The translations under genes and the position numbers were made by a program. A stretch of DNA of 64,000 bases from Chloroflexota bacterium (GTDB lineage: Bacteria; Chloroflexota; Dehalococcoidia; Dehalococcoidales; JAZDNC01): positions 1,017-65,016 of the forward strand of contig JAZDNC010000012.1 of assembly GCA_043800335.1 (NCBI GenBank), written 5' to 3'. This document shows positions 1 to 59,564 of this stretch, piece by piece (the first letter of the stretch is position 1; the number at the start of each line of letters is the position of its first letter). Below the pieces are notes generated by a model, which had not been told where the DNA came from, searched no databases, and saw only the letters and a list, made by a program, of their open reading frames with translations.

Positions 1-1417
1 TGGCGTCTCCAGCTACGGGATGAATGTTAGCAATAACTATATGGTACCGAGAAGGGTGCTGTATCAGACTTACCGCCCCGGCTACTGGAAACCCCGCGAT
101 GAGGTGCAGCAGTATATGGCAAACCCGGCTCTGGTGGAGCAGGCGGTCAAGTGGCTACTGGAGGCAGAGAAACCGGTCATCATCGCCGGTCACGCCGCCC
201 ACCAGCAGGACTGCCAGGAGGAGTACCGGGAATTTGCCCATCTCCTTGGCGTCCCTTCGAGCGGACGGCGCACCGCCAGGGGCATAATCTCTGAGCTGGA
301 TGACCTGAACTACGGCAGAAGAGCCAGAGGCCCCGTCTTTGATCAAGCGGACAGATGCATCATACTGGGACTGAGATGCGGCATGCTGGAGGGTTTTGGT
401 AATCCGCCCTTCTTCCCGCACACCATCCGTTACTGCCAGATTCAGGACGACCATGAGACCACAGAACTCAATCTCCCCACCGATATTGAAGTTATCGGCA
501 ACCTGAAGCAGACCCTGAAGCAGATGATTCAGGTAGCTAGGGATATGGGCATCAAAAAACCGGTGGCTAAGTGGGAGAAGTGGCGCCAGTTTGTCAAGGA
601 CACCGAGGAGAGCTACAAGAAGCGGGTTCTCGCCAGGACCGATAGGATGGCACACCAGATGCCGGTTCACCCTGACCTGGTCGGACGCTATGTCTCTGAG
701 GTGATGAGCGAAGACTACAACAACGATTGTATATCAATCGTTGATGGCTTCACCGCCTCCGCCTACTTCACCGCCTGGAATATCGCGACGACAAGTGGCT
801 GTAACCTGGACGCCTCTGAGACCATCGGCATCGGACACTCCCCGGGCATGGCGCTGGCGGCGGGACTTGCCACCAACCGTGAGAAACCAATCTTTGCCGT
901 CATGGGTGACGGGGCGGTGGGTGCTGGTGGCATGGACATCGAGACCTGCGTCAGGTGGAATATCCCAGCAATCTTCCTGCATGAGAACAACAACACCCTC
1001 ATCAACGGCACATGGGAGTACTTCTGGGCTAAAGCCTGCGCGGTAGAGGGCAATGTACTTCATGATTCATGGGAGACCATGCCCTGGATACACTACGAGA
1101 AGATGTTCGCCGAAGTAGGCGCCCACCCCGAGTTTGTGGAGAAACCGGAGCAGCTCAAACCAGCGATTAAGCGGGCTTTCCAGGTAGCGATGAAGGAGAA
1201 GAAACCGGCCTTCGTCGAGGTGTTTGTTGACATGGACGTCGTCCACTCGTCCTTCGCCCAGCCGGCAAGTGTGGTCAGGACTGCCGCCCAGTTTAAGTGG
1301 GATGAGCTGCCGGACAAGGGGAAGAAGCTTATTGCTACCCAGCTGGTTTCCCCGGTATCTCTATCCAGATTGCCCAAGGACTACCAGGAGGGCATCGCCA
1401 CCTATCAGAAGAAGTAA
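1..1417 (+). CDS. Thiamine-diphosphate-dependent enzyme (acetolactate synthase / 2-oxoacid decarboxylase superfamily), 5' end off-window
   Basis: ORF 20..1417 stays open to nt 2. It aligns colinearly with about residues 200-662 of the 662-aa paralogue at 55430..57418 (roughly 85% identical by eye). ThDP motif GDGAVGAGGMDIETCVRWNIPAIFLHENNNT. Confidence 0.85.
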   Translation, partial: GVSSYGMNVSNNYMVPRRVLYQTYRPGYWKPRDEVQQYMANPALVEQAVKWLLEAEKPVIIAGHAAHQQDCQEEYREFAHLLGVPSSGRRTARGIISELDDLNYGRRARGPVFDQADRCIILGLRCGMLEGFGNPPFFPHTIRYCQIQDDHETTELNLPTDIEVIGNLKQTLKQMIQVARDMGIKKPVAKWEKWRQFVKDTEESYKKRVLARTDRMAHQMPVHPDLVGRYVSEVMSEDYNNDCISIVDGFTASAYFTAWNIATTSGCNLDASETIGIGHSPGMALAAGLATNREKPIFAVMGDGAVGAGGMDIETCVRWNIPAIFLHENNNTLINGTWEYFWAKACAVEGNVLHDSWETMPWIHYEKMFAEVGAHPEFVEKPEQLKPAIKRAFQVAMKEKKPAFVEVFVDMDVVHSSFAQPASVVRTAAQFKWDELPDKGKKLIATQLVSPVSLSRLPKDYQEGIATYQKK

Positions 1418-1480
1418 TTTAAGGATTTAGAAGGGATACCCTTCTAAATCTATTCTCGGGTGATAAAAGGAGGTTTGGTA

Positions 1481-3346
1481 ATGGCGACAAATGGCTACGC
1501 GGGTAAAATCCTGAGAGTTAACCTTACTAACGAGCGCATCAGCGAAGAGACCCTGAGCGAGGCGGAACTTAAGAAGTGGGTGGGCGGGTCTGGCTTCGGG
1601 GCGAAGTACCTCTACGCCGAGGTGTCTCCCGGGGTGCAGTGGAACTCCCCGGAAAACCGCCTCATCGTGTCTTCGGGCCCCCTCGGCGGCACCAGAATGG
1701 GTGGCTCGGGCACCATCTCTGTCGTGACCAAGGGGCCACTCACTAACGGGGCGGTGGCGACCCAGGCTAACGGCTACATGGGCGCTTTCATGAAGTTCGC
1801 CGGCTACGACGCCGTCATCTTCCAGGGGATAGCCAAGCGCTGGGTCTACCTCTACATGCACGACGGCAAAGCCGAGCTAAGAGACGCCCAGCACCTGCTG
1901 GGCAAAAACACCTGGGAGACTGAGGACGCCATCAAGGCAGAACTCGGCTACGGGGAGAAGGCGATGAGCGTCTTCTGCGTGGGACCGGCGGGTGAGAACC
2001 TGGTCAAGTTCGCCGGCATCTTCGGTGACAAAGACCATGCCGCCGGGCACAACGGCTCTGGAGCGGTGATGGGCTCCAAAAAGCTCAAGGCTATCTGTGC
2101 GGCAAGGGGTAAAGGCACAGTGGCGGTGGCTGACCCGGATGGCCTGGCCGATTCGGTAGAGAAGATGTGGGACGCCATCCAGGCTGACCCGGTGAGGGGT
2201 GTTGTCTTCAACTGGGGCACCGGGGGTAACTATGCCAGGGGTTCAAGCCGCACCAAGGTGGGCACCCTTCCCATCAAGAACTATACCACCGACCTCTATC
2301 CCCAGACCGATATCATCACCACTCAGTACGGCAGGGAACGCTGGAAGATAACGCCTGCCCCCTGCTGGTCTTGCCGCAGTCACCACTGCAATCTGGTTAC
2401 CTTTACTGAGGGGGCGCACAAGGGTCTTACCGTAGAGGAGCCGGAGTACGAAATGTATGCCGCCTGGGGACCCCTCATCGGCAATACCGACGCCGCCGAG
2501 ATACTGGTTCTCTCCAATCAGCTTACCCTCCTGGGGCTGGAGGGGAACGAAGCCGGTTTCCTGGTCTCCATGGTGATGGAGCTTTACGAGAAGGGCTTCC
2601 TCAAGCAGGAAGACACCGGTGGGCTTAACCTTAACTGGGGCAATACCGAGGCCGTGGGGACGCTTCTTGAGCGTATCGCCCGCCGTGAGGGTGCCTTTGC
2701 CAACGTTTTGGCGGAGGGCACGGCAAAGGCGGCTGAGGCTCTGGGACCAATGGCTAAGGAGTTTGGTATTTATGTCGGGAAGGGGCACTCACCGAGAGGT
2801 CACGACCACAGAGCCATGTGGCGCGAGATGTTTGACACGGCGACCTCCGACATCGGCACCTACTCATCGGGATACGCCGGTCCCCCTGACCCGGACGGAC
2901 ACACCTTGAAAGATATTTTCTCCCCGGAAGAGGTCGCCACCCACACCGCCAAAACGAAGGGAAGGCGCCAGTTTGAAGACTGCCTCGGTACCTGCACCTT
3001 TGCCACGTACGGCACCCTGCGCGAGCTTCTGGTGCCCTTCAATGCGGTAACCGGCTGGAGTTTTACCCCCAAGGACGCTTCGGACGTGGGTTTCAGGCTC
3101 TCCAATGTCCTCCGCGCCTTCAACCTCCGGCACGGTATCGGGGTCGAGACGGAGCGCTCTTCACCCCGCTACTGGTCGGCGCCGGTTGACGGTCCGGCCA
3201 AAGGCGTCACCATCCAGCCGCACTGGGATAAGATGCTGGACATCTACTACAAGGAAATGGGCTGGGACAGGAAGACGGGTAAGCCCTTCCCCGAGACACT
3301 TAAAGCGCTGGGGCTGGATAACATCGTGAAAGACCTCTGGAAGTAA
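1481..3346 (+). CDS. Tungsten-type aldehyde:ferredoxin oxidoreductase (AOR family)
   Basis: About 620 aa. N-terminus MATNGYAGKILRVNLT, GGSGFGAKYLY and the CWSCRSHHC cluster motif are typical of the AOR family. AAAGGAGG lies 7 nt before the ATG at 1481, so the GTG at 1460 in the track was trimmed. Confidence 0.9.
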   Translation: MATNGYAGKILRVNLTNERISEETLSEAELKKWVGGSGFGAKYLYAEVSPGVQWNSPENRLIVSSGPLGGTRMGGSGTISVVTKGPLTNGAVATQANGYMGAFMKFAGYDAVIFQGIAKRWVYLYMHDGKAELRDAQHLLGKNTWETEDAIKAELGYGEKAMSVFCVGPAGENLVKFAGIFGDKDHAAGHNGSGAVMGSKKLKAICAARGKGTVAVADPDGLADSVEKMWDAIQADPVRGVVFNWGTGGNYARGSSRTKVGTLPIKNYTTDLYPQTDIITTQYGRERWKITPAPCWSCRSHHCNLVTFTEGAHKGLTVEEPEYEMYAAWGPLIGNTDAAEILVLSNQLTLLGLEGNEAGFLVSMVMELYEKGFLKQEDTGGLNLNWGNTEAVGTLLERIARREGAFANVLAEGTAKAAEALGPMAKEFGIYVGKGHSPRGHDHRAMWREMFDTATSDIGTYSSGYAGPPDPDGHTLKDIFSPEEVATHTAKTKGRRQFEDCLGTCTFATYGTLRELLVPFNAVTGWSFTPKDASDVGFRLSNVLRAFNLRHGIGVETERSSPRYWSAPVDGPAKGVTIQPHWDKMLDIYYKEMGWDRKTGKPFPETLKALGLDNIVKDLWK

Positions 3347-4749: not shown

Positions 4750-5057
4750 TCGCCAGCTACTTTAATTCTCCCAGCCGCAACATCTCCCGTAGCTCGTGTT
4801 TTTTCACCTTGCCCGAGGGCGTTACGCGCCAGCCGTTCCACGAAGAAGACCCACGTCGGCTTTTTGTAGCTGGCGAGTAAATTTGCCAGTCCCCAGATAG
4901 CGTTAGTAACCGGGGATGACTCTCCTACTCCGGGCGGCTTGGCGAAAGGACTGGGAAAGCTCTTGCCTGAGACACCGTAAACAAAATGAGGCACCCCGTT
5001 AGCCAGAAGAATGCCAGCAAAGAAGCAGACTAAAGACCACATCGCTACTGCCTCCAT
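4647..5057 (-). CDS. Hypothetical small membrane protein, possibly truncated or frameshifted
   Basis: The N-terminal 65 aa are membrane-like (WSLVCFFAGILLANGVPHF...WGLANLLASY). The C-terminal half has non-protein-like composition after an A-run near 4860. Confidence 0.3.
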   Translation of the reverse strand: MEAVAMWSLVCFFAGILLANGVPHFVYGVSGKSFPSPFAKPPGVGESSPVTNAIWGLANLLASYKKPTWVFFVERLARNALGQGEKTRATGDVAAGRIKVAGDYISRLTMRYKYRILNTAPAIPRGMAKVEWDKLP

Positions 5058-5063
5058 TCACTT

Positions 5064-5633
5064 CTAATTTTCTGAGCCGAGCTTTCTACCTAGCGCATAG
5101 GCTTCCTTGAGCAGAGCCGGGTTTTCCTTTATCTCACCAGCCCGCCAGGCGCTGCCGTGGACAATGCCGACAATCTCGACATGAAGGTAGTTGAAAATAT
5201 CCCGGAACATGTTGATGGCATTAACCGCCCCCGAAACAATGGCGTCGGCATCACCATAGGTGAGGAGAATGCCGATTTTCTTTCCGGCAAGGGGATTACC
5301 GGCTCTTCCCTGTAACGCATACCAGCGGTCAAGGAAGAGCTTGGTCTGGGCAGAGACAGAAAAGAAGTAGATGGGACTGGCGATGACGATGGCATCAGCC
5401 GCTCTGAGCTTCGGATATAGAATCTGCATATCGTCTTTGCCCACACAACCTGTGGCAGCCCTTTTTTGACAGGCACCGCAGGCGTCACAGGGCGCGATTG
5501 CCATCTCGCTGAGATGGAAGCTTTCAACCTTTGCTCCTGCTGATTCAACCCCCTTTATCACTTTTTTCGCCAGAATCTCACTGTTGCCGTTCTTTCTGGG
5601 ACTGCCCAAAAGGACCAGAACTCTCTTTGCCAC
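5064..5633 (-). CDS. Iron-sulfur flavoprotein / NADPH-dependent FMN reductase family
   Basis: VLVLLGSPRKNGNS flavodoxin-like P-loop. Compact CDACGACQKRAATGC (Cx2Cx2Cx7C) motif as in Isf proteins. The GTG at 5633 is preceded by AAGGAG, so the 279-aa track ORF was trimmed. Confidence 0.8.
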   Translation of the reverse strand: MAKRVLVLLGSPRKNGNSEILAKKVIKGVESAGAKVESFHLSEMAIAPCDACGACQKRAATGCVGKDDMQILYPKLRAADAIVIASPIYFFSVSAQTKLFLDRWYALQGRAGNPLAGKKIGILLTYGDADAIVSGAVNAINMFRDIFNYLHVEIVGIVHGSAWRAGEIKENPALLKEAYALGRKLGSEN

Positions 5634-7495: not shown

Positions 7496-8179
7496 ATGAT
7501 TGAGCTTAAAGACATCTCAAAGATTTACCGCATGGGCAAAGTTGAGGTCCGTGCCCTTAACGGCTTGAGCCTGACGATAAACGACGGTGAGCTGGTTGCT
7601 ATCGTCGGGGCGTCAGGGTCAGGCAAATCGACCCTTCTCCACATCATCGGCTGTATCGCCAAGCCGACCATGGGAAGGTACATCCTTGACGGCGCAGATG
7701 TAAGCCGGTTGAACGATAACCAGCTCGCCAATATAAGAAGCCGGAAAATCGGCTTTGTCTTTCAGGATTTCAATCTCCTGCCGCGGGCGACCGCTCTGGC
7801 CAACGTGGAGCTTCCGCTCATATACAGCGGTGGACGCAGCCGCCGGGCGAGAGCCATAGAGGCTTTAAGCCGGGTCGGTCTCACCGAGCGCATGAACCAC
7901 AGACCAACGGAACTATCCGGCGGCGAACAGCAAAGGGTTGCCGTTGCCCGTGCCCTGATTAACCGGCCTCCCATCATTGTTGCCGACGAGCCGACAGGAA
8001 ATCTGGACAGCATCTCAGCGAGCGGAATCGTCTCACTCCTCTGCGGGCTGAACGGCGAGGGCATTACGGTGATTCTGGTCACCCATGAGATGGACATTGC
8101 CAACCAGACAAGACGCATCATCCGCCTCAAGGACGGCAATATCATCTCGGATGAGCTAGGGGAGGGCTGTAAGCCGTGA
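7496..8179 (+). CDS. ABC transporter ATP-binding protein (MacB/LolD type)
   Basis: Walker A GASGSGKST, signature LSGGEQQR, Walker B IIVADEPT. The TGA stop overlaps the next gene's GTG start. Confidence 0.92.
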   Translation: MIELKDISKIYRMGKVEVRALNGLSLTINDGELVAIVGASGSGKSTLLHIIGCIAKPTMGRYILDGADVSRLNDNQLANIRSRKIGFVFQDFNLLPRATALANVELPLIYSGGRSRRARAIEALSRVGLTERMNHRPTELSGGEQQRVAVARALINRPPIIVADEPTGNLDSISASGIVSLLCGLNGEGITVILVTHEMDIANQTRRIIRLKDGNIISDELGEGCKP

Positions 8180-11675: not shown

Positions 11676-12515
11676 TTAAGCGGCGGCGACCTTCGCCTCC
11701 TCTTTTTCCCTGGTAACCACCGTCAGAACCCTGGTCGGGCAGGCTTCAACGCAGGCAAGGCAGAGGGTGCACTTCGCCGAGTCAAACTCGGGAATACCTT
11801 TCTCTTTGTTCCAGGTTATGGCACCAGCCTCGCAGGCTTTAAAGCAGAGCTGGCAGTGGGTACAGCCGAATTCACAGCGCTCCCTGCCCGGGATGTTCCG
11901 GAGGGGTATATAGCTACAGCGATGGGCAATCTTCGTCCCTGGAGACACGAGCTCGATAATCCCCCTCGGACACTCCTTAACGCATAGACCGCAGCCGATA
12001 CACTTGTTCCAATCTATTTTGGCGACTTTGGTATCCGGGTCTATCGAGATAGCCCCCTCAGGGCAGATATTCACGCAGTCCCCCAGACCCAGACAAGCGT
12101 AGGGACATTTCTTCTGCCCGCTGAGGAGCTGTGCCGCCGCCTTGCAGGTCTCAATACCTTCGTAATCGAAGATAGCCTCCGAGTTCCCGGCGCAATGAAC
12201 GAGCGCCTTCTTCGCCAGGGCTGCGGCATCCAGCTCTATGCCCAGGGCTTTTCCCAGCTTGGCTAGCTTTTCCGGGTCCTGAGCGGTCATACCGCAGGTG
12301 ACGCTCCTTATCAGCTCCGGGTTCTTGGTCAGTGCCTGAGCGAAACCGAAACAGCCGGGGAAACCACAGGCAGCACAGTTACGTCCCGGCAGAATGGCAT
12401 TAATCTCTTCTGTCTTCTCCAGTCCCTGTACTTTTTGCGGTATCTTCAGAAATCCGACGTATATAAGGGCTCCACAGACAAGCCCAATTGCCGTAATAAT
12501 TAGTACTGGTACCAT
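11676..12515 (-). CDS. rnfB: Rnf complex subunit B (polyferredoxin)
   Basis: N-terminal TM helix, CAACGFPGC motif and several CxxCxxCxxxCP ferredoxin motifs. Last gene of rnfCDGEAB. Confidence 0.92.
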   Translation of the reverse strand: MVPVLIITAIGLVCGALIYVGFLKIPQKVQGLEKTEEINAILPGRNCAACGFPGCFGFAQALTKNPELIRSVTCGMTAQDPEKLAKLGKALGIELDAAALAKKALVHCAGNSEAIFDYEGIETCKAAAQLLSGQKKCPYACLGLGDCVNICPEGAISIDPDTKVAKIDWNKCIGCGLCVKECPRGIIELVSPGTKIAHRCSYIPLRNIPGRERCEFGCTHCQLCFKACEAGAITWNKEKGIPEFDSAKCTLCLACVEACPTRVLTVVTREKEEAKVAAA

Positions 12516-12550: not shown

Positions 12551-13132
12551 TTATACCAGACCGGCGAAGCCGTAGAAAGTCAAACCAAGCAACATGGCAA
12601 CAAAGATAGCTATCGGTAGCCCTCTGAAGTTAATCGGAAGAAGAGCCGTGTCCAGCTTCTCCCTTATTGCCGCCATTACAATCATTATGTAAGCAAAGCC
12701 AACCGCGCCACCGAAAGCCGATACAATGCTTTGAATCAGGGAATACTGCTCCCTGAGATTAATGAAAGTAATCCCAAGGACACCACAGTTCACGGTAATA
12801 AGCGGCAAGAAGATGCCAAAGGCATTATACAGATTGGCGTTAGTTCGCTTGACATACATCTCGGTAAGCTGTACCAGTGTTGAAATCACCAGTATGTAAA
12901 TCACATTGTTCATGTAGAGGATTTTAAAGGGTATAAGCAACTGATAGGTCAAAATCCAGCAGATTGCAGCTGAGATGAACATGACCAGTCCCAGAGCTAC
13001 GCCCATGGGGACGGCGTCCTTTACCCTTTTGGTCACACCAAAGAAGGGACATAGCCCCAGGAAGAGGGCAACCGCGAAGTTGTTCACTATCGCCATCTGA
13101 AAGAATATCTCAAAGAGCCCTTTATTACTCAT
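12551..13132 (-). CDS. rnfA: Rnf complex subunit A
   Basis: VNNFAVALFLGLCPFFGV and GIFLPLITVNCGVLG motifs. Confidence 0.92.
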   Translation of the reverse strand: MSNKGLFEIFFQMAIVNNFAVALFLGLCPFFGVTKRVKDAVPMGVALGLVMFISAAICWILTYQLLIPFKILYMNNVIYILVISTLVQLTEMYVKRTNANLYNAFGIFLPLITVNCGVLGITFINLREQYSLIQSIVSAFGGAVGFAYIMIVMAAIREKLDTALLPINFRGLPIAIFVAMLLGLTFYGFAGLV

Positions 13133-13739
13133 GTTTTTCCACCCCCATCCGTCTCAATAGTCCATGAAGAAGTCCAATGACCAGAAATGCTCCTGGCGGC
13201 AGCACCAGCAGCCCGATAGGCTGGTCTTTCAGAACGGGTAAGGTAAGGAACTTTTGTCCCATGAAGGATAGGCTTCCCGTGCCGAATAGCTGCCTCGGGA
13301 TAGCCACTACCAGCATGGCAAGACCGAACCCAAGAGCTACACCCACGCCATCAGCGATAGATAGCCTCACCGGATTGTGAAGGGCGAAGACCTCCGCCCG
13401 ACCAAGGACGTTTCAGTTTACCGTAATCAGTGGCAGGTATATACCCAGCAGGGTGTATATCGCCGGGACATAGGCGTGAAAGGTCATGTCAACGATGGTG
13501 ACAAAGCTGGCGGCAATAACAATCATGATGGGGATTCTTACCACATTGGGGATGAAGTTCCGCATGGTTGAGATGATAATGCTCGTCCAGAACATGATGA
13601 AGGCAAGACCCACCGCCATGCCGATAGAACCATCCAGCCCGATGGTCAGCATGAGAGCGGGGCAGTTGCCCAGACAAAGCACCATAAGCGGGTTCATGGT
13701 AATGAATCCCTTGGTAAATTCACCCCACATTTTCTTCAT
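13125..13739 (-). CDS. rnfE: Rnf complex subunit E with an in-frame TGA at codon 109 (candidate selenocysteine, or nonsense mutation)
   Basis: Track ORFs 13413..13739 and 13125..13370 are in the same frame. They are separated by TGA (13413..13415) plus 14 sense codons. The read-through is ...GIYLPLITVN-TGA-NVLGRAEVFALHNPVRLSIADG..., matching the RnfE consensus across the junction. Confidence 0.8.
13382..13399 (-). other. SECIS-like stem-loop downstream of the rnfE TGA
   Basis: RNA GGGCGGA-GGUC-UUCGCCC: a 7-bp stem with one G.U pair and a GGUC loop closed by A-U. The stem starts 13 nt after the UGA. The hexamer AGGUCU matches the fdhF SECIS apex as I recall it. Confidence 0.55.
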
Positions 13740-13765: not shown

Positions 13766-14302
13766 CTATTTAGGTAATGCCTTGACTCTTTCAAGGGCGG
13801 TGTTTCTGACTGCCTCTACCACCGCCCTTGAGCTTATCGTAGAGCCGGTAATCCCATCTATCTGTCCGCCATCGGACTTAAGTTTAATGTCCTCTATTTT
13901 TTGATTAATGAATTTGTCCGTAAACGATGGTAGTCTAACGCGGTCGCCAAGCCCCGCTGTCTCGCTCTGAGAGACAATAGCGATACCCTTTACGGTGGTC
14001 GCATCTTGCAGCGCCACCATGATGCTAATTTCTCCGTGATAGCCAGTGCCGGTCGCCTTGAAGGCATAGCCGACTGTCTTGCCATCTGCCAGGATGGTGT
14101 AGACATCGTTTTCCAGGTTGAAGCTGGTCATCTCAGGAAAGAAGACTTTAAGCGGTGCCATAGAACCAGCTTCTTCCTGAGCTTTGATTTTAGGCTCGGT
14201 AAAGCGATTGGCATAGCTGAGAAAGTTTACCGAGGCGAAAACAACTATGGTAACGATGATTACCGGATAGAGCTTCTTCAGGACATTCTCTTTAGGCTGC
14301 AC
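13766..14302 (-). CDS. rnfG: Rnf complex subunit G (FMN-binding)
   Basis: N-terminal anchor and GITGSTISSRAV flavinylation motif. Confidence 0.9.
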   Translation of the reverse strand: MQPKENVLKKLYPVIIVTIVVFASVNFLSYANRFTEPKIKAQEEAGSMAPLKVFFPEMTSFNLENDVYTILADGKTVGYAFKATGTGYHGEISIMVALQDATTVKGIAIVSQSETAGLGDRVRLPSFTDKFINQKIEDIKLKSDGGQIDGITGSTISSRAVVEAVRNTALERVKALPK

Positions 14303-15248
14303 CTTTCACCGCCTTTCTGAAACCGAGCGGTCTTACCCTGACCAGTCGGTCAATAATCGGGGCTAGAGAGTTCATGAAGAGAATAGAGTAGCCGGCGCCT
14401 TCGGGTAAACCGCCGAACCTTCTGATAACAGCAGTGGTCAAACCACAACCGAGTGCGAATATCATCCTGCCCCGGCGTGTTACCGGCGTGGTCACCGGGT
14501 CGGTCGCCATGAAGATGGCGCAGAGCAGTAGACCGCCAGAGAGCAGTTGTAGCACCGGGTCCTCACCAAAAAGCGCCCCCACCGCGACCGTTGTGCCGAC
14601 AAAGATTAGCGGAACCTCCCAGTCAATGAGCTGTAAAGCTATGAGCAGAATGCCCCCGACAATGAGAATCACCACCGAAGTCTCGCCCATAGAACCGGCA
14701 CGATTCCCGAAAAACATGTCCTGGTAAAGGGCAAGCCTCGCCGCCAGCCGGGAAGACCAGGCGAAGTTATTGCTCAGAGGAGTGGCGGTGGATACAGCGT
14801 CCACGCTGAAAGGCATCAACCAGGTCGTCATCGCTTTGGGGAAGGAAGCAGCGAGAAGAGCACGTGCCGCCAGAGCAGGATTAAAGATGTTGTAGCCCAG
14901 ACCGCCGAAGGCTTCTTTGACGATGCCGATGGCAAATACAGCCCCCAGGGCCACCATCCAGAGGTTAATTGCCGCGGGTAGAGTGAGGGCTAAAAGCATG
15001 CCGGTGATAATAGCGCTCCCATCCATGACGAAGGGCTTGCCTCTAATCTTCTTACAGCCCCACTCCGTTAGCAGGGAGAAAACCACACTGGTCAGCACGA
15101 TGAAAAGCGCCCTCAGCCCGAAGAAATAGGTCGCCGCGCCAACGGGCAGGAGCAAGACCAGAGCGGTGAGATACATTATTCGGTTTACTGAAAAACCCCG
15201 CCAGATATGAGGCCCTGGCGAGACCTGGAACTCACCTTGTGGCATCAT
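14292..15248 (-). CDS. rnfD: Rnf complex subunit D
   Basis: Polytopic NqrB/RnfD-like protein with the C-terminal ...SILFMNSLAPIID motif region. Confidence 0.9.
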   Translation of the reverse strand: MMPQGEFQVSPGPHIWRGFSVNRIMYLTALVLLLPVGAATYFFGLRALFIVLTSVVFSLLTEWGCKKIRGKPFVMDGSAIITGMLLALTLPAAINLWMVALGAVFAIGIVKEAFGGLGYNIFNPALAARALLAASFPKAMTTWLMPFSVDAVSTATPLSNNFAWSSRLAARLALYQDMFFGNRAGSMGETSVVILIVGGILLIALQLIDWEVPLIFVGTTVAVGALFGEDPVLQLLSGGLLLCAIFMATDPVTTPVTRRGRMIFALGCGLTTAVIRRFGGLPEGAGYSILFMNSLAPIIDRLVRVRPLGFRKAVKGAA

Positions 15249-16564
15249 TTCTTTGCTTTCCTCCTACTAATCTCCTTCTTAGCAATCTTTATGTACTGGA
15301 CATGAGGAATGTTGGCCGGGCAGACATAGGAGCACATGCCGCACTCGAAACAACACTCTATATAATACGACTGGCAGTCTTCATACTGACCCTTCTTAAT
15401 ATACCTAGGATATACCCTGGGCATAAGTCCCGCCGGACAGACGGCAATGCAGCGACCGCAGTTAATGCAGTTAGTCTCTTTTATCGGCTGCGGGGCTTTC
15501 ACTAGAAGGCAGGTGGTGCCCTTGGTCACCGGAGAGTTAAGGTCAAATACGGCGACTCCCATCATCGGACCGCCCATGATTACCTGCCCTTCCGCTACCA
15601 TGCCACTGCAAAAGTCAATCAGGCTCTTAATCGGCGTGCCCAGTCTTACCAGAAGATTCTTGGGATTTTTGACGGCACCGGTGACTGTTACCACCCGCTC
15701 AATCAGGGGCTTACCCTCGTAAATAGCATCGTAAATAGCCTTGGCGGTCGCCACGTTATGCACCACCACCCCCACGTCCAGTGGCAAGCCGCCTATTGGC
15801 ACTTCTCTCTTTACGATGGTTTTGATAAGCGTTTTTTCGGCGCCGCCGATATACTTGGCTTCCATCGGCACAATCTGAAAGGGAAAGCCCTTTTTGCCAA
15901 TCAAATTCTCCAGATTGTCCATGGCGTCTTCTTTATTGTCCTCAACCGCAATATAGACATTCTTGGCTCCCAGCAACTTCTGGATGAGCTGTAAACCGCC
16001 CAGCATCTTGTCGCCGTACTCCAGCATCACCCTGTGGTCTGCTGTCGCGTAAGGTTCGGATTCACACCCGTTGAGGATAAGAGTATCAATCGTCTTGCCC
16101 TTGGGCGGCGCCAGCTTGACGTGGGCGGGAAAGGTAGCCCCTCCCATCCCCACGATGCCAGCCTCCCTTACCCGCTTGAGAATCTCTTCATTGGTCATAG
16201 CCTCGGGATTCTTGGGGACGTCGAGCTCTATCCACTTGTCGGCGCCATCAGAGGTTATCGTGATGATGTCCGTGACTTCCCCGGTGCGTGGATTGATGCC
16301 CGTGGTGACACTGGCGACCTCACCGGAGCAACTGGCGTGAATGGGCGCCGACACATATTTGTCGGAATCGGCAATCTTCTGCCCGGTGAGAACCTTATCC
16401 CCTCGCCTCACCAGGGCTTTATTGGGCGCCCCCAGATTTTGCTGTACCGGCAGAATCACGCTCTCCGGTATTGGCGCCTTCTCAATCGGGCTAGCCGCGG
16501 TGAGTTTGCAATCCGGCAGGTGCACCCCGTTAGGCAGGCGCTTTTTCTTTAGCCTGATGTTCAC
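15245..16564 (-). CDS. rnfC: Rnf complex subunit C
   Basis: GIVGMGGATFPAHVKL NADH/FMN site and two CxxCxxCxxxCP motifs near the C-terminus. Confidence 0.92.
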   Translation of the reverse strand: MNIRLKKKRLPNGVHLPDCKLTAASPIEKAPIPESVILPVQQNLGAPNKALVRRGDKVLTGQKIADSDKYVSAPIHASCSGEVASVTTGINPRTGEVTDIITITSDGADKWIELDVPKNPEAMTNEEILKRVREAGIVGMGGATFPAHVKLAPPKGKTIDTLILNGCESEPYATADHRVMLEYGDKMLGGLQLIQKLLGAKNVYIAVEDNKEDAMDNLENLIGKKGFPFQIVPMEAKYIGGAEKTLIKTIVKREVPIGGLPLDVGVVVHNVATAKAIYDAIYEGKPLIERVVTVTGAVKNPKNLLVRLGTPIKSLIDFCSGMVAEGQVIMGGPMMGVAVFDLNSPVTKGTTCLLVKAPQPIKETNCINCGRCIAVCPAGLMPRVYPRYIKKGQYEDCQSYYIECCFECGMCSYVCPANIPHVQYIKIAKKEISRRKAKK

Positions 16565-16576
16565 TCCCTTTTCACC

Positions 16577-17587
16577 TCACTTACTCTCACTGAGATACTT
16601 ATCCATACCGGAGGAAAGAATAATCTCCCGGTCGGTATCCACAATGAAACACTCCACATCGTCCATGGACTCAACCAGCCTCATCCCCTTCTCTGGCCCC
16701 AGAACAAAGACCGAGGTCGCCAAGGCGTCAGCCTGGGTGCCGCTGCCGGCGACTATTGTAACGCTGATACACTCTCCAGCCGAATACCCCGTCTTTGGAT
16801 TCATGAGGTGGTGAGCCTTCTTGTCCGGGGAGAAATACCGCTCGTAATTCCCTGAAGTTGAGATTGATTTCTGGGCGAATCGGAAGATAGCCAGACTTTC
16901 ACTGGTGTTGTCCGGGTTGACCAGACTTATATTCCAAGGCTCACCGCTCGGTTTGGTGCCCAGAGTGCCGATATCCCCGCCGGCGGCGATAATGGCGTGT
17001 TTTACCCCCATCCCCTCTAAAATCCTGAGAGCCTCATCAACGGCGTAACCCTTGGTAATGCCACCAAGGGTAATCTTCATTCCTTCCGCCTCAAGGCTTA
17101 TCCGCTCGGCAGTGACCTCTATTTTATCAGAGCCAATCAGCCGCAGGTATTCATTAACCCTGGCTTGCTGAGCTTCTGCCGACTCTTGCCACAGACCCGC
17201 CGCCCAGAGTTCGAGAAGGGGCTGAACGGTGATGTCAAAGTAGCCGTCGGTGAGCTTGTTGAACTCTATTGACTGCCTGACCAGACGCACCAGGTCAAGC
17301 GAGGGACTCTCCAGATAACCGTCACGGTTGAGCTTGAAGGCTTCGGCATTTTCATCAAAGATTGAAGCCGCCTTAGCGATCTCCTCCATGCGGAGGAAGG
17401 CGGCACTTATGGCTTTCCCAGCAAAGACCCGGTCATCCGCGTAAACGGTTACCCGGATGAAGGTGTCCATCATGTTGCGGGTTTCCTCGTATTTCTCCGG
17501 GGAAGCCCTGACCGCACAGCCTGCAGGAGCGACTAGCAGTGTAACAAGTGTTAGAAGAATCGCTAGGGCATTCTTTAGTTTTTTCAT
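16577..17587 (-). CDS. apbE: FAD:protein FMN transferase (ApbE family) lipoprotein
   Basis: Signal peptide LVAPAGC and GYFDITVQPL motif. It lies 12 nt upstream of rnfC. Confidence 0.88.
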   Translation of the reverse strand: MKKLKNALAILLTLVTLLVAPAGCAVRASPEKYEETRNMMDTFIRVTVYADDRVFAGKAISAAFLRMEEIAKAASIFDENAEAFKLNRDGYLESPSLDLVRLVRQSIEFNKLTDGYFDITVQPLLELWAAGLWQESAEAQQARVNEYLRLIGSDKIEVTAERISLEAEGMKITLGGITKGYAVDEALRILEGMGVKHAIIAAGGDIGTLGTKPSGEPWNISLVNPDNTSESLAIFRFAQKSISTSGNYERYFSPDKKAHHLMNPKTGYSAGECISVTIVAGSGTQADALATSVFVLGPEKGMRLVESMDDVECFIVDTDREIILSSGMDKYLSESK

Positions 17588-52151: not shown

Positions 52152-53186
52152 TTAATCAACCTTGTCTCGCCGGTAACCCTTACCGTCTATTATCACGCGA
52201 GCGCTACCGGATTGCTTAACCACCTCACCCACCAGAAGCGCCTCGGGCAGGGCTCCGGTTATCTTTCCCATTTTTGACTCCGACACAATAAGCACCATGC
52301 CCAGACCCATGTTGAAGACATGATACATCTCGTCCAGAGAGACATTACCCCGTTTACGAATCATATTAAAAATTGGAGGCACCTGCCACCTCGCGCTGTC
52401 AAAGCGGGCGGCAAGCCCCCCGGGTAAGACCCGGGGCACGTTTCCCACCAGACCGCTCCCGGTGATGTGCGCCAACCCTTTGATGTGGGGAAGTAATGGC
52501 TTCAATTCCCTGAGATAGCTCCGGTGGGGACGCATCAGCTCATCACCGAGAGTCCGCCCCAGCTCCGCGTAGAAGGTGTTCAGGGTCTTAGCTTGAGTCC
52601 CGAAGACCTTGCGCACCAGTGAGTAGCCGTTGGTGTGAAGCCCGTTTGAGGGAAGCCCAATAATGACATCGCCCGCAACTATGCCTTTACCCGTAATCAT
52701 CCGGGGCTTCCCCACGACCCCGACGATGAATCCGGCGAGGTCGTAGTCCTCTCCAGAATACATGCCGGGCATCTCGGCGGTCTCTCCGCCAATCAGGACA
52801 CAGCCGGCTTCACGGCAGGCAGAAGCCAGTCCCTCGGCGATAGCCCCAACCTTCTCGAGAGAAAGCCTCCCCATCGCTATGTAGTCCAGAAAGAAGAGCG
52901 GCTGCGCACCCAGCGTCAGGATGTCGTTGACGCAGTGGTTCACGATGTCAATACCGACGGTGTTATGCCTGCCTAAAGCCGAGGCGATGAGGAGCTTGGT
53001 GCCGACCCCGTCCACGTGGGAGACCAGGACCGGCTCCCGGTAGCCTTTGAACTCAAAAAGCCCGCCGAAAGAGCCTACGCCAGAAAGGACCTCCGGAAGA
53101 TAGGTGGACTCAGCCAGCTTCTTGATGCGCTCCTTCGCCCTGGCGGCGAGGCTGGTATCAACCCCAGCCTGAGCATAAGCCTCCAT
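52152..53186 (-). CDS. purM: Phosphoribosylformylglycinamidine cyclo-ligase
   Basis: AYAQAGVD, DGVGTK and GGETAEMPG motifs. Start trimmed to the ATG at 53186 (SD-like GGAAGGGA upstream). Confidence 0.93.
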   Translation of the reverse strand: MEAYAQAGVDTSLAARAKERIKKLAESTYLPEVLSGVGSFGGLFEFKGYREPVLVSHVDGVGTKLLIASALGRHNTVGIDIVNHCVNDILTLGAQPLFFLDYIAMGRLSLEKVGAIAEGLASACREAGCVLIGGETAEMPGMYSGEDYDLAGFIVGVVGKPRMITGKGIVAGDVIIGLPSNGLHTNGYSLVRKVFGTQAKTLNTFYAELGRTLGDELMRPHRSYLRELKPLLPHIKGLAHITGSGLVGNVPRVLPGGLAARFDSARWQVPPIFNMIRKRGNVSLDEMYHVFNMGLGMVLIVSESKMGKITGALPEALLVGEVVKQSGSARVIIDGKGYRRDKVD

Positions 53187-53279
53187 AGGACAGTATCCCT
53201 TCCAAGCCATGAACTAACTGTTTTACCAGCACTGAAATAATACCACCAGACAGGCTAACGGGCAACAAGGTTCTGTGGT

Positions 53280-55429: not shown

Positions 55430-57418
55430 CTACTTCTTCTGGAAAGAGGCGATACCCTCCTGCCAGTCCTTGGGCAGTCTGGGGAGCACGGCCGGGCTAA
55501 CCAGTTGGGTAGCCATCATCCGCTTACCCTTGTCCGGCAGCTCGTCCCACTTAAACTGGGCTGACGTGCCGATTATGCTCCCTGGCTGAGCGAATGTTGA
55601 ATGGATGACGTCCATATCAACAAACACCTCGACAAAGGCAGGTCTCTTCTCCTTCATGGCAACCTCAAAAGCCCTCTTGACGGCGGGCTTGAGCTGCTCC
55701 GGTCTCTCCACAAACTCGGGGTGGGCGCCTACTTCGGCGAACATCTTCTCGTAGTGTATCCAGGGCATGGTCTCCCAACTATCATGGAGGATGTTGCCCT
55801 CAACGGCACAGGTCTTAGACCAGTATAGTTCCCACATGCCGTTGATGAGGGTATTATTGTTCTCGTGGAGAAAAACCGCCGGGATGTTCCACCTGACGCA
55901 TGACTCGACGTCCATGCCAGCGGCACCCACCGCACCATCACCCAAAATGGCAAAGATGGGCTTGGAGCGGTTGGTTGCCAGTCCGCACGCCAGCGCCAAC
56001 CCGAAGGAATGCCCGATGCCGATGGTCTCAGAGGCATCCAGGTTGTGACCACTGTTTGTCGCGATGTTCCAGGCGGTGAAGTAAGCTGAAGCCGTAAAGC
56101 CATCAATGATAGAGATACAGTCATTGTTGTAGTCTTCGCTCATCACCTCGGAGACGTAGCGTCCGACCAGGTCGGGATGCACCGGCATCTGGTGTGCCAT
56201 TCTATCGGTTCTAGCGAGCACCCGCGCCTTATAGCTTGCCTCGGTGTCTTTGACGAACTGGCGCCACTTCTCCCATTTCGCCACCGGTTTCTTAACGCCC
56301 ATGTCCTTGGCCACCTGAATCATTTGCTTCAGTGTCTGCTTCAGATTCCCGTAAATCTCAATATCTGTAGGTAGATTTAGCTCGGTGTTCTCAGGGCAGT
56401 CCTGAATCTGGCAGTAGCGAATTTTGTGGGGGAAGAAGGGTGGGTTACCATAGCCTTCCAGAACACCAATCCTGAGTCCGAACACGATACAGCGGTCAGC
56501 CTGGTCAAAGACGGGACCCCGGGCACGCCTGCCGTAGTTCAGGTCATCCAGCTCAGAAATGATGCCCCTGGCGGTGCGTCTGCCACTCGAGGGGACTCCA
56601 AGAAGGTGGGCAAACTCCCTTAGCTCCTCCTGGCAGTCCTGCATGTGGGCGGCGGAGCCGGCGATAAGAACTGGTCTCTCGGCTTCCATGAGCCATTTGA
56701 CCGCCCGCTCCACCAGGACGGGGTTAGCCAGATACTGCTGCGGTGCGGGGTCGGGTTTCCAATAGCCGGGGCGATACGCCTGATAGAGAACTCTTCTGGG
56801 TACCAGCTGGTTTTGACTGGGGTTGATTTCGCTAGCGGCCACGGCGATGGATACCGGCCCGGTAGGCGGCGTCACGGCGCTGCGGAAAGCCCTCTTCATC
56901 TGCCAGAGGAAGGTATTCGGTGTGCTTACCTTCCTCACCCACTTGCAGATGCCGCGGAACTGGTTCTCTGCCCGCGCCAGACCCTGATTGCCGTACTTAT
57001 CGTCATCAAAGAGGCCGGTTTCACAGGACAGGGCAACGCCGGGAGAGCCTGAGGAGTAAGCCTGGACAAGCCCGGTGCTGAAGTTGGTAAGTCCTGTCCC
57101 ACCAACATGCATGGCAAGGGTGGGGCGGCGGGTCACTGTCCCCCAGCCACTCATGAAAAAGCCGGCAGTCTGCTCGTGGCGCACATGGACACACTTTATT
57201 TTCTGTTGCTGTGCCGAACGGATGAAGATACCGGTGTTACCCCCGGTAAGGAAGGGAATATACTCCACCCCCTCTTCCTTGAGCATTTCGGCAAGGGCAT
57301 CACCGATGCGGATTCTCTCTTCCGCCTTGACATCAACCACTGCCTGTTGCTTGAGCGCCAACTCTGCCGTTGGTCTCAGTTTGTCAACCAGCATCCTTTC
57401 TTCTTGCTCTTCGGCCAT
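55430..57418 (-). CDS. Thiamine-diphosphate-dependent enzyme (full-length paralogue of 1..1417)
   Basis: 662 aa. PYR-domain catalytic Glu context (VRHEQTAGF). GDGAVGAAGMDVESCVRWNIPAVFLHENNNT. TAAGGAGG lies before the ATG. Confidence 0.9.
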   Translation of the reverse strand: MAEEQEERMLVDKLRPTAELALKQQAVVDVKAEERIRIGDALAEMLKEEGVEYIPFLTGGNTGIFIRSAQQQKIKCVHVRHEQTAGFFMSGWGTVTRRPTLAMHVGGTGLTNFSTGLVQAYSSGSPGVALSCETGLFDDDKYGNQGLARAENQFRGICKWVRKVSTPNTFLWQMKRAFRSAVTPPTGPVSIAVAASEINPSQNQLVPRRVLYQAYRPGYWKPDPAPQQYLANPVLVERAVKWLMEAERPVLIAGSAAHMQDCQEELREFAHLLGVPSSGRRTARGIISELDDLNYGRRARGPVFDQADRCIVFGLRIGVLEGYGNPPFFPHKIRYCQIQDCPENTELNLPTDIEIYGNLKQTLKQMIQVAKDMGVKKPVAKWEKWRQFVKDTEASYKARVLARTDRMAHQMPVHPDLVGRYVSEVMSEDYNNDCISIIDGFTASAYFTAWNIATNSGHNLDASETIGIGHSFGLALACGLATNRSKPIFAILGDGAVGAAGMDVESCVRWNIPAVFLHENNNTLINGMWELYWSKTCAVEGNILHDSWETMPWIHYEKMFAEVGAHPEFVERPEQLKPAVKRAFEVAMKEKRPAFVEVFVDMDVIHSTFAQPGSIIGTSAQFKWDELPDKGKRMMATQLVSPAVLPRLPKDWQEGIASFQKK

Positions 57419-57506
57419 TTTATCCTCCTTAATTATTTTCCGACCTTATCGGTTGTTTCCGTTACTTCTGTCCTATACCCACCTCCTTAGCTCAACAAGA
57501 CCGCTA

Positions 57507-57543
57507 CCAATAAAACGGCGGGGAACATTTTCTGCTCCCCGCC
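57507..57543 (-). terminator. Intrinsic terminator between AOR-2 and the ThDP gene
   Basis: Minus-strand GGCGGGGA-gcagaaaatgt-TCCCCGCC followed by GTTTTATT. Confidence 0.6.
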
Positions 57544-57680
57544 TTTCATTATGTCATGTCAGAACTCCACTGCCCACTGCTCCTTCCCCTGTATGTCTGG
57601 CAAGCATAGCCGACACTCCTTTTCTGACTATAGCTCAGGTACAGCTTCCAAAAGTCCTGACTTTTGAAGACCCAGCCGGG

Positions 57681-59564
57681 CTACCTCTCCTTCCAGAGGT
57701 CTTCAGCCTCCTTGTTGAGTCCCAGCTTCTTAAGTGTCTCCGGCCAGGGCTTGCCCGACTTCCTGTCCCAGCCCATGTGCTTGTAGTACTCGTCCAGCAT
57801 GTGGCTCCAGCCCGGCTTGATGTCCTTGCCCTTCGCCGGACCATCCACCGGCACCGAGCTGTACAGGATTGACGGGGCTTCCACCGCCAGGCTGACCCCG
57901 TGCCTCAGATTGAAAGCCCGCATCAGATTCACTTCTCTGTCGGCAGCAGCAACGGCATCCTCAAACGTCATTTTCCAGCCCGTGGCGGCGTTAACAATGT
58001 TTAAAAGGAGAGTGAAGTCCGGCCCCGCCCTCATGTTGCAGAGCCCCAGGAGGTCGATGAACTGACGTCTCGGCTTAAACTTGGCTACCATAAGAGCTAC
58101 CTGGTCGGTAGAGTACGGGTCGGTAAATGCCGGCAGTTTGAATTCGGCAGGTATCGCCCCCATGATGGGACCGGTCTCGATCGTACCCTGGCTGGAGGTG
58201 GCATAGTCCAGCTCCTCAGTCCAGCGCGCCCGGTGGTCGTGACCGCGGGGAGCATGACCCTTCTGGATGTAAGCCGCATACTTCAGGGCTTCCCCACCAA
58301 TCTGCTCCGCCGCCCGCTTGATGCCCTCCGCCAGTATGTTGCCAAACCCCTCGCGATGCGCCACCTTGTGCAGCATCCGCCTCACCGCCTCGACATTCCC
58401 CCACTTCATCTCCAGCCCGCCGGTGTCCTCCTTACCAATAATGCCCCGCTCGTAGATGTCAACCACAAAGGACATGAGCCAGCCCGCTTCGTTGACATCA
58501 AAGCCGAGCTTGTCCACCTCGTTGGACAGCACAAAGACCCCCGGGATATCATAGTTCATCAGATTGGGACCAAGCTCCGACCAGCACTCATACTCGGGCT
58601 CCTCACCCACATAACCGGCATAGGGCCCATCCTTGACCGTCATGATGTGGAGGTGATGCGTGGGACAGGCCCAGCAGGGGCTGGGCTTAATCTCAAAGCT
58701 CTTGCTCTTGCGGTAGTTCTCACCTAAAAACGCCTCGTGGTTGGGGAAGAGGTTGGTGTTCATGTTCTTGACCGGCAGGTAGCCTATAGAAAGCGCACCC
58801 GGGAAAGACATGCTCGTCCCCCAGTTGAACGAGTTCTGCCCCGCCGGCGTGCTCACGATGTTGTCGTTCATCGCCTGCGCCAGTTCAGCAAGTTTCTCAG
58901 CATCAAAAACCGGGGCGCTACCCTTACCCCGGGCAACCGCAATCGCCTTGAGCCGCTTGGAACCCATCACCGCACCGGTGCCGTTGTGGGCGGCAGCGTG
59001 TCCCTTGTCCCCGATGACACCGGAAAACTTAATCAGGTTCTCACCCGCCGGCCCGATGCAGAAGACGCTCATCCCCCTCTCGTTGAAACCAAGTTCCTTC
59101 TTGATGGTATCTTCGGTCTCCCAGGTGTCTTTCCCGAGTAGGTGCCGGGCATCTTTGAGCTCTGCCTTGCCGTCATGAATGTAGAGGTAGACCCAGTGGT
59201 CGGCAGCTCCCTGCACAATTACCCCGACCAGCCCGTTGAACCTCAAATAAGCTCCGAAGTAGCCGTTAGCCTGGGTGGCAGTGCCACCATTGGTGAGAGG
59301 GCCTTTGGTCACCAACGAAAACGTACCTGTGCCCGATACCCTCGTGCCACCAATCGGACCAGTGGCAAATATCATCCGGTTCTCCGGGTCTGCCCACTCC
59401 ACACCCGGCGGGACCTCGTCATAGAGAATCCTAGCGCCGAAGCCCGTCCCGCCCACGTATTTCTTCACTACGCTTTGTTCAAGGGTCTTCGTCGTGATTC
59501 TCTTGGTCGATAGGTTGACTCTTACGAACTTGCCTTCGTAGGCCGGAGCCTTCTCTGGTGCCAT
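57681..59564 (-). CDS. Tungsten-type aldehyde:ferredoxin oxidoreductase (AOR family), paralogue 2
   Basis: 627 aa, roughly 60% identical by eye to AOR-1. GAAGGAGG lies before the ATG. The cluster motif reads CWACPTHHL, where AOR-1 has CWSCRSHHC. Confidence 0.9.
   Translation of the reverse strand: MAPEKAPAYEGKFVRVNLSTKRITTKTLEQSVVKKYVGGTGFGARILYDEVPPGVEWADPENRMIFATGPIGGTRVSGTGTFSLVTKGPLTNGGTATQANGYFGAYLRFNGLVGVIVQGAADHWVYLYIHDGKAELKDARHLLGKDTWETEDTIKKELGFNERGMSVFCIGPAGENLIKFSGVIGDKGHAAAHNGTGAVMGSKRLKAIAVARGKGSAPVFDAEKLAELAQAMNDNIVSTPAGQNSFNWGTSMSFPGALSIGYLPVKNMNTNLFPNHEAFLGENYRKSKSFEIKPSPCWACPTHHLHIMTVKDGPYAGYVGEEPEYECWSELGPNLMNYDIPGVFVLSNEVDKLGFDVNEAGWLMSFVVDIYERGIIGKEDTGGLEMKWGNVEAVRRMLHKVAHREGFGNILAEGIKRAAEQIGGEALKYAAYIQKGHAPRGHDHRARWTEELDYATSSQGTIETGPIMGAIPAEFKLPAFTDPYSTDQVALMVAKFKPRRQFIDLLGLCNMRAGPDFTLLLNIVNAATGWKMTFEDAVAAADREVNLMRAFNLRHGVSLAVEAPSILYSSVPVDGPAKGKDIKPGWSHMLDEYYKHMGWDRKSGKPWPETLKKLGLNKEAEDLWKER

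Follow-up and report, generated by a model that had tools for sequence, protein, structure and literature searches.

Selenocysteine at Metal Centers and Its Predicted Occurrence in the Rnf-Nqr Family

Selenocysteine (Sec) binds the metal center in [NiFeSe] hydrogenase, in formate dehydrogenases, and in HdrA/VhuD of methanococci, taking the place of a metal-binding Cys in the anaerobic energy metabolism that these enzymes serve. A comparable replacement is proposed here for RnfE, a membrane subunit of the Rnf complex, whose gene was examined in a 64,000-nucleotide stretch of contig JAZDNC010000012.1 from a Chloroflexota bacterium of the order Dehalococcoidales (the whole stretch is called the window below). 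In this gene, the codon of the second Cys ligand of the [2Fe-2S] cluster at the RnfA/RnfE interface is UGA, and comparison of sequences points to Sec insertion directed by SelB together with a SECIS (Sec insertion sequence) element as the most likely mechanism, a reading that we consider very probable. The center concerned differs from the precedents in being a membrane-buried [2Fe-2S] cluster that gates an ion pump, rather than a catalytic Ni, Mo, or W site or a soluble cluster. To our knowledge, the RnfA/RnfE (NqrD/NqrE) cluster is the only membrane-buried Fe-S cluster known.

The nearest entry in the selenoprotein literature is an NqrE protein (COG2209, "NADH:ubiquinone oxidoreductase") with the motif TXXU, reported from a single Sargasso Sea sequence (PMC1088965); the same family had earlier been a candidate (Kryukov and Gladyshev, 2004, as cited in PMC1088965). 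In Global Ocean Sampling data, pfam02508 comprised 3 sequences with Sec and 1,484 with Cys (PMC2398784), and reviews of 2022 and 2026 still list the family but give no representative accession and do not mention Rnf (PMC9312934; PMC13188914). Residues T106-V107-N108-U109 of the window product fit the TxxU motif within PF02508, so a selenoprotein of this kind is not new to that literature. The two share the Pfam family, the motif, and their standing as predictions, and the site, the second ligand Cys of TVNC, is probably also the same, as judged from the motif rather than from a comparison with the published sequences. They differ in subunit and setting. The published entries are annotated as NqrE, the RnfA-like paralog, and come from aerobic surface-ocean metagenomes, whereas the window gene encodes RnfE, the NqrD-like paralog, for which nqrE models score low, and lies in an rnfCDGEAB operon, not an nqr operon, of anaerobe-type Chloroflexota, with a counterpart in a metagenome-assembled genome (MAG) of the Actinomycetota. 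Sec-RnfE is moreover backed by 16 sequences and a defined putative SECIS. The published lists class TxxU as a thiol-redox motif, the role of this Cys as an Fe-S ligand being known only from structures of 2022-2025. A literature search on selenocysteine or selenoprotein with the Rnf complex and the Rnf/Nqr subunits returned no description of Sec-RnfE; the initial annotation of the window, which knew of no selenoprotein RnfE, was thus right about the subunit and too strong about the family, in which a TxxU selenoprotein has been listed since 2004-2005.

In the solved structures, the intramembrane [2Fe-2S] cluster is ligated by the RnfE/NqrD Cys under discussion together with RnfE C25/26 and two Cys residues of RnfA (NqrE; PMC11889175; PMC9588780; PMC9325719). 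Mutation of the Cys residues coordinating this cluster in Acetobacterium woodii abolishes growth and activity, and cryo-electron microscopy with molecular dynamics indicates that in the Rnf complex of A. woodii cluster reduction draws in Na+ and sets off the inward/outward switch (PMC11889175).

An In-Frame UGA at the Second Cluster Ligand of RnfE

The gene and its two ligand codons lie as follows:

13125..13739, minus strand: rnfE coding sequence, a single frame matching PF02508 and the rnfE/RsxE models, with a TAA stop at 13127..13125
13662..13664, minus strand: TGC codon of the first [2Fe-2S] ligand, the invariant Cys26, which is kept and aligns to C25/C26 of the solved RnfE chains
13413..13415, minus strand: in-frame UGA, codon 109, the proposed Sec codon, standing where RnfE otherwise has its second [2Fe-2S] ligand Cys

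On the minus strand, rnfE runs from 13739 to 13125 as a single frame of 204 sense codons, the UGA included, and has only one internal stop (TGA at 13415..13413). The initial annotation had joined two fragments of the open reading frame (ORF) list, 13413..13739 and 13125..13370, into one frame broken only by this TGA and had called the product normal in length; both points stand, as the read-through product has 204 residues against 204-205 in its homologs. With Cys put in place of the stop, the product matches the Rnf-Nqr family PF02508 at 8.7e-49. Its NCBIfam scores are 189.8 bits for rnfE_Methano, 183.1 for RsxE (cut-off 184), and 177 for TIGR01948, against 74.5 bits for rnfA and about 30-45.5 bits for the nqrE models; although the product scores just below curated cut-offs, the ranking of the models is clear, and the protein is an E-type, not an A-type, Rnf-Nqr membrane subunit. 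The best match in the PDB is A. woodii RnfE (2.9e-41), and the product aligns end to end with the RnfE chains 9eri_E, 8ahx_E, and 7zc6_E. Its nearest homologs in the protein collection are RnfE proteins of Chloroflexota and Dehalococcoidales of 204-205 residues, at identities of no more than 83%.

Of the two Cys codons of RnfE that supply cluster ligands, C26 is therefore present, while the second is UGA. The column of the UGA holds Cys in 19 of 19 aligned relatives and in all 120 full-length homologs listed, in keeping with its earlier description as an invariant Cys. It aligns, in a region without gaps, to C108 of A. woodii RnfE, C109 of Clostridium tetanomorphum RnfE, and C112 of Vibrio cholerae NqrD, and this alignment to solved structures, with the structural papers (PMC11889175; PMC9588780; PMC9325719), bears out the claim that the replaced residue is an Fe-S ligand. 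Compared with the Cys-type RnfE/NqrD chains (9eri_E of A. woodii, 8ahx_E of Azotobacter vinelandii, 7zc6_E of C. tetanomorphum, and 7xk3_D of V. cholerae), the window protein has the same fold family, length, and operon, and conserves the first ligand Cys and R68/E116; the difference is the second cluster ligand, encoded by TGY there and by UGA here. RnfE C26 is likewise kept in the other TGA-type loci described below, and RnfA keeps both of its ligand Cys residues in every such locus that includes rnfA. In the RnfA proteins of some loci (TGA-type L007, L008, L010, and L020, and Cys-type L014), His precedes the ligand Cys, giving ITVHC instead of ITVNC; this variant is not strictly tied to the TGA form, as Asn is found in the window, L011, and L012.

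Recurrence of the UGA Codon and Translation Beyond It

Other rnfE genes with TGA at this codon were sought with a degenerate DNA pattern, in which the TGA is flanked by codons for L-G-x2-L-P-L-x3-N and x3-G-R-x-E-x-F. The pattern occurs once in the window, where none is expected by chance. Among JGI metagenomes, it was found in 10 contigs from 10 different samples, and a relaxed version retrieved only two MAGs from the genome collection, one from the Chloroflexota (JBDRFO01; L012) and one from Candidatus Geothermocultor quzhuomuensis (JACVJC01; L011), which belongs to the class Aquicultoria of the Actinomycetota. A protein search with the 108-residue N-terminal fragment returned six proteins only, all of 105-108 residues and ending in ...LITVN or ...LIVVN, the mark of gene calls truncated at the same codon; the three of these six that were checked in DNA, on NCBI metagenome contigs, each have the TGA and an open frame beyond it. 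In all, the TGA is confirmed in DNA for 16 rnfE genes: that of the window, 10 on JGI contigs, three on NCBI metagenome contigs, and two in MAGs. The downstream frame runs to a C-terminus of normal length in all of them except L021, where the gene stops at the contig edge, and L003. In L003, a single contig, the last ~25 codons diverge (…QPIGCSSSRPGPSLWWDCFTDF), which fits a frameshift caused by an assembly error or by a real lesion.

The frame beyond the UGA is translated. In pairwise comparisons, the ratio of nonsynonymous to synonymous divergence (dN/dS) over the 55 codons downstream is 0.05-0.28, with a proportion of synonymous differences (pS) of 0.42-0.79, which is near saturation, and these values resemble those of the 60 codons upstream. 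The 14 codons after the UGA read N-[VL]-L-G-R-A-E-V-F-[AG]-L-H-N-P in nearly all Chloroflexota sequences despite many synonymous differences. Such purifying selection on the downstream frame is taken to exclude a pseudogene or a sequencing error.

It had been allowed at the outset that the codon might be a TGC-to-TGA nonsense mutation in a decaying gene, to which a sequencing or assembly error confined to one assembly may be added. Three observations agree with such an origin: the closest full-length homologs carry TGC, the fold of the window hairpin taken singly is not significant (see below), and the strict TGA pattern had no match in 185,579 species-representative genomes, among which the TGA form is thus rare. 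However, the TGA is common to 16 independent sequences that span different samples and assemblers as well as two phyla; these have no further stops and a single late frameshift (L003) in a frame under the selection just described; and a SECIS-type hairpin accompanies every TGA form but is absent from Cys forms, including the closest at 81-83% identity. The nonsense mutation is refuted by this combination, and this whole class of explanation is left extremely improbable.

A split gene, in which translation would stop at the UGA and restart downstream so that halves of 108 and about 81-94 residues assemble in the membrane, is also very unlikely. Gene callers do annotate two fragments (108 and 94 residues in L022), and an in-frame GTG lies two codons past the TGA in L012, L021, and L022. 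In most TGA forms, among them the window and all of clade 2 (defined below), no start codon occurs in frame between the UGA and the NxLGRAEVF motif, which argues against termination followed by re-initiation since the motif is nevertheless under purifying selection. A break at the UGA would in addition remove an essential cluster ligand, and it leaves the TGA-specific hairpin unexplained.

Reassignment of UGA to a sense codon throughout the genome, as in codes 4 or 25, has a next to negligible probability, with nothing beyond the in-frame UGA itself to suggest it. Stop codon use among the window ORFs is TAG 30, TAA 21, and TGA 15, the rnfE UGA counted; TGA ends 14 other well-supported ORFs, and its earlier description as an ordinary stop elsewhere in the window is upheld by cases such as 7496..8179, where it overlaps the next gene as GTGA. 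Several of these stops form ATGA or GTGA overlaps with the following start, including that of rnfC with rnfD, which presumably share one transcript with rnfE, and rnfC ends in TGA also in L007, L008, L010, and L012. The rnfE genes of L020 (283..~897) and L011 (minus strand, ~5462..4850) themselves terminate at a second TGA, which has no hairpin, so that one mRNA carries one recoded and one terminating UGA within the same gene. No other real gene of the window holds an in-frame TGA: in a scan for further TGA-split genes, the remaining candidates were frames that do not code for protein or neighboring genes that happen to share a frame, only rnfE was credible, and the other decayed genes that the initial annotation had mentioned were not found. 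Recoding of UGA is thus specific to this site.

The Hairpin Downstream of the UGA

Bacterial SECIS elements are described as stems of 6-8 bp whose small apical loop bears a conserved G ~20 nt downstream of the UGA (PMC4605307; criteria also in PMC1088965). The element in the window is the following:

13382..13399, minus strand: SECIS-like hairpin within the R-A-E-V-F-A codons, with the 5' arm GGGCGGA at 13399..13393, the loop GGUC at 13392..13389, and the 3' arm UUCGCCC at 13388..13382

It had been proposed from the window alone and is confirmed in its details: its start lies 13 nt past the TGA, one of its 7 bp is a G.U pair, and the loop GU is at +25/+26. The predicted fold of the local 30-nt segment has an energy of -11.5 kcal/mol. 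Because the hairpin lies in the R-A-E-V-F-A codons, it overlaps with the peptide motif under the strongest constraint; the E116 codon inside it (13392..13394) specifies the aligned counterpart of E115 in A. woodii RnfE, a residue that forms a pair with R67 and binds Na+ close to the cluster.

Escherichia coli fdhF has the same apex, AGGUCU (A21-G22-G23-U24-C25-U26), as first noted, its loop GU standing at +23/+24. Of 5426 complete E. coli genomes, 5419 gave a match in fdhF to the sequence used for this comparison, with an identity of >=99% in nearly every case. In both genes, a UGA is followed by a hairpin with an A-GGUC-U apex and a loop G-U about 20 nt on, and Sec replaces, or in RnfE would replace, a metal-ligand Cys. 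The fdhF hairpin is longer and contains a bulged U, whereas the window stem is a plain 7 bp and its binding by SelB is putative; other RnfE clades use GUU, AGUU, AGUC, or GGAA loops; and the metal center is Mo in FdhH and a [2Fe-2S] cluster in RnfE.

A hairpin is present in 16 of the 16 TGA forms, starting 9-13 nt after the UGA and carrying a G in a loop of 3-4 nt, 18-22 nt downstream. In 15 of them, the stem has 7-8 bp and starts at 13 nt, and the loop G lies at 21-22 nt, so the geometry fits the published bacterial description in all but L011, whose interrupted stem of 4+3 bp bears a GGAA loop at 18-21 nt and folds at -7.9 kcal/mol. The forms are distributed as follows:

Window clade (window, L003, L009, L020, L021): GGGCGGA-GGUC-UUCGCCC
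L012 and L022: stem of the window clade, with the loops AGUU and AGUC
Clade 2 (L001, L004-L007, L010): GGCCGAA-GUU-UUCGGCC, with the register offset by one nucleotide
Clade 2 variants L002 and L008: one G-C pair turned into A-U by synonymous changes at two sites, the third position of an Arg codon and the first of a Leu codon
Actinomycetota L011: GGAA loop on a stem that is interrupted and weaker

Pairing in clade 2 is restored by an Ala GCG-to-GCC change together with an Ala-to-Gly GCC-to-GGC change. Compensatory change, which the initial annotation had named as something to look for, is seen within the hairpin alignment as a single G-C to A-U pair produced by a double synonymous change.

The Cys-type genes differ. 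Their hairpin is absent or weak in seven of seven cases, and the mean local 30-nt energy is -5.4 kcal/mol in these against -11.8 kcal/mol in 13 TGA forms (Mann-Whitney p = 2e-4); three TGA forms added later have values of -11.5 to -12.8 kcal/mol. In the nearest Cys-type genes, P0001/L013 and P0002/L014 (81-83% identity), the 5' arm GGGCGGAGG is kept, while the 3' side reads TTT GCA or TTT GCT, not TTC GCC, and with this alteration the hairpin is lost. Close relatives with TGC and no hairpin therefore do exist, an observation that, had TGA been confined to this assembly, was to count against recoding; TGA is not so confined, and many relatives carry it along with the hairpin.

Selenocysteine as the Probable Inserted Residue

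In the proposed mechanism, UGA codon 109 would be decoded as Sec, with SelB and Sec-tRNA(Sec) binding the 7-bp, GGUC-loop hairpin 13 nt downstream, inside the conserved R-A-E-V-F-A codons, and the product would be the full-length, 204-residue RnfE. One of the four ligands of the membrane [2Fe-2S] cluster at the RnfA/RnfE interface would then be a selenolate instead of a thiolate, and the other three, RnfE C26 and the two RnfA Cys residues, would stay Cys. Since both RnfA ligands and RnfE C26 are kept in the TGA-type loci, the cluster would be of a Cys3-Sec1 type. As cluster reduction drives Na+ binding and the conformational switch in A. woodii, the substitution sits at the center that couples redox chemistry to ion movement, where selenium presumably tunes the potential, reactivity, or stability of the cluster. 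The lineage is a plausible one for such a protein, given that BSepDB places Dehalococcoidia genomes among the ten bacteria richest in selenoproteins and that Rnf-bearing deep-sea Chloroflexi carry Sec formate dehydrogenases.

Several observations weigh against Sec insertion. The window sequence by itself folds no better than chance (z = -0.52), and a single hairpin, ranked among synonymous recodings of its peptide, comes no higher than the top 6-10% (~10% for the window); the weak hairpin of L011 is equaled or surpassed by 39% of its recodings. The structure is in part a by-product of the RAEVFA peptide, as Cys forms have a weak, G.U-rich 5-bp version of it. Covariation is thin, amounting to one compensatory pair (G-C in 12 sequences, A-U in two), and 15 of 500 shuffles reach the observed score; counts in a fixed register are weak owing to the one-nucleotide offset between the pairing registers of the two clades. 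The contrast between TGA and Cys hairpins is not phylogenetically independent and may rest on as few as two origins. With the single-sequence fold insignificant, the significance of the hairpin comes from the comparative data. Rfam searches of the whole window at the gathering threshold and of 13300..13480 in E-value mode gave nothing relevant; we know of no bacterial SECIS model in Rfam. No tRNA-Sec was detected (ARAGORN found no tRNA in the window or in 12 loci), nor was any gene for Sec synthesis or insertion found in the window or the loci retrieved. One ORF of the window (52152..53210, minus strand; 352 residues) belongs to the AIR-synthase family, and thus to the SelD superfamily, but is read as a probable PurM rather than SelD from its PurM-like N-terminus and its location between ORFs taken as purF and purH.

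The data prove recoding and the hairpin but not which residue enters, which gives some room to read-through with a residue other than Sec: Cys delivered by SelB on a tRNA(Sec)-like tRNA(Cys) with the anticodon UCA, or near-cognate Trp or Cys, the outcome being an ordinary or a crippled RnfE. SelB-dependent decoding of UGA as Cys by a Sec-like tRNA(Cys) was reportedly described by Mukai and colleagues in 2016. At a strictly conserved Fe-S ligand, which is Cys in 120 of 120 homologs and belongs to a cluster whose Cys residues cannot be mutated in A. woodii without loss of growth and activity, only Cys or Sec is chemically sensible, and if Cys were wanted, a single change of TGA to TGC or TGT would supply it at no cost. 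The TGA and the hairpin have instead been kept across lineages only about 60% identical, and Sec is by far the commonest outcome of a UGA followed by such a hairpin. Read-through to another residue accordingly seems unlikely, and Sec is by far the likeliest residue.

Evolution of the UGA and Cys Forms

The relations among the forms were viewed in a neighbor-joining tree of 120 Cys homologs and 13 TGA forms, which carries no bootstrap support. In this tree, all Chloroflexota TGA forms group together (L012, the window clade, and clade 2), L011 stands apart, and the Cys-type P0001 and P0002 are nested next to the window among the TGA forms. Clade 2 shares only about 60% identity with the window rnfE. 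The simplest reading, which is indicative only, would be at least two origins of the TGA form, in the Chloroflexota and the Actinomycetota, and at least one interconversion of Sec and Cys within a clade more than 80% identical. The half-kept hairpin of P0001 and P0002 looks like decay after a reversion from Sec to Cys, or like a snapshot of a state that preceded the SECIS. Both forms coexist in one habitat, as the NCBI metagenome assembly GCA_041643155.1 holds Cys-type (L013, L015) and TGA-type (L021) rnfE genes from related populations.

Gene Cluster and Metabolic Context

The rnf cluster of the window is complete, in the order apbE-rnfC-rnfD-rnfG-rnfE-rnfA-rnfB, and the order apbE-rnfCDGEAB is common to L007, L008, L010, L011, and L012. 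A domain search of the window proteins agrees with the first description of the remaining rnf genes and apbE as intact. The genes other than rnfE are:

11676..12515, minus strand: rnfB, polyferredoxin subunit with FeS and Fer4 domains
12551..13132, minus strand: rnfA, the partner subunit, with both cluster ligands Cys (LGLCPFFG, ITVNCGVLG)
13766..14302, minus strand: rnfG, subunit that binds flavin mononucleotide (PF04205)
14292..15248, minus strand: rnfD (PF03116, 2e-100)
15245..16564, minus strand: rnfC, with an ordinary terminating TGA at 15247..15245 that overlaps the rnfD start (ATGA)
16577..17587, minus strand: apbE, flavin transferase, the first gene of the cluster (PF02424, 5e-74)

After the cluster come ORFs taken as rsmD and coaD from their Pfam families. 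A gene pair at one end of the window (20..3346, plus strand) recurs inverted at the other (55430..59564, minus strand) and consists of a thiamine-pyrophosphate enzyme (465 and 662 residues) adjoining a tungsten-type aldehyde:ferredoxin oxidoreductase (628 and 627 residues). The 465-residue enzyme, which starts 20 nt from the window edge, lacks the N-terminal thiamine-pyrophosphate domain of its 662-residue paralog. Together with Rnf, these pairs suggest a ferredoxin-centered metabolism of 2-oxoacids and aldehydes.

Implications for the Rnf Complex

Taken jointly, the observations may mean that some Rnf complexes naturally contain a Cys3-Sec1 membrane [2Fe-2S] cluster at the site of redox and ion coupling. 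Such a cluster would have arisen at least twice (Chloroflexota and Actinomycetota), would interconvert with its Cys counterpart within clades of >80% identity, and would have gone unrecognized by the Rnf/Nqr field. Its SECIS would have evolved from a weak latent hairpin in the RAEVFA codons, including the Glu codon that matches the Na+-binding Glu of A. woodii, and selenium would tune the potential or the robustness of the coupling cluster. This composite account is one that we marginally favor.

One consequence concerns annotation. Because rnfE is called as two fragments (108 and about 81-94 residues), Rnf is counted as defective in the genomes of these Chloroflexota and Actinomycetota, which distorts the metabolic reconstruction of anaerobic sediment and subsurface lineages. 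For selenoprotein biology, a poorly documented family gains its first well-supported set of sequences, a SECIS, and a second subunit type, as well as a structural rationale, in which the residue of the TxxU motif would be a metal ligand and not a thiol-redox group. If Sec is indeed inserted, Sec-RnfE would offer a natural selenolate variant with which to ask how ligand chemistry sets the cluster potential and its coupling to ion binding, as well as a native 77Se probe for the spectroscopy of a cluster that is difficult to observe by other means.

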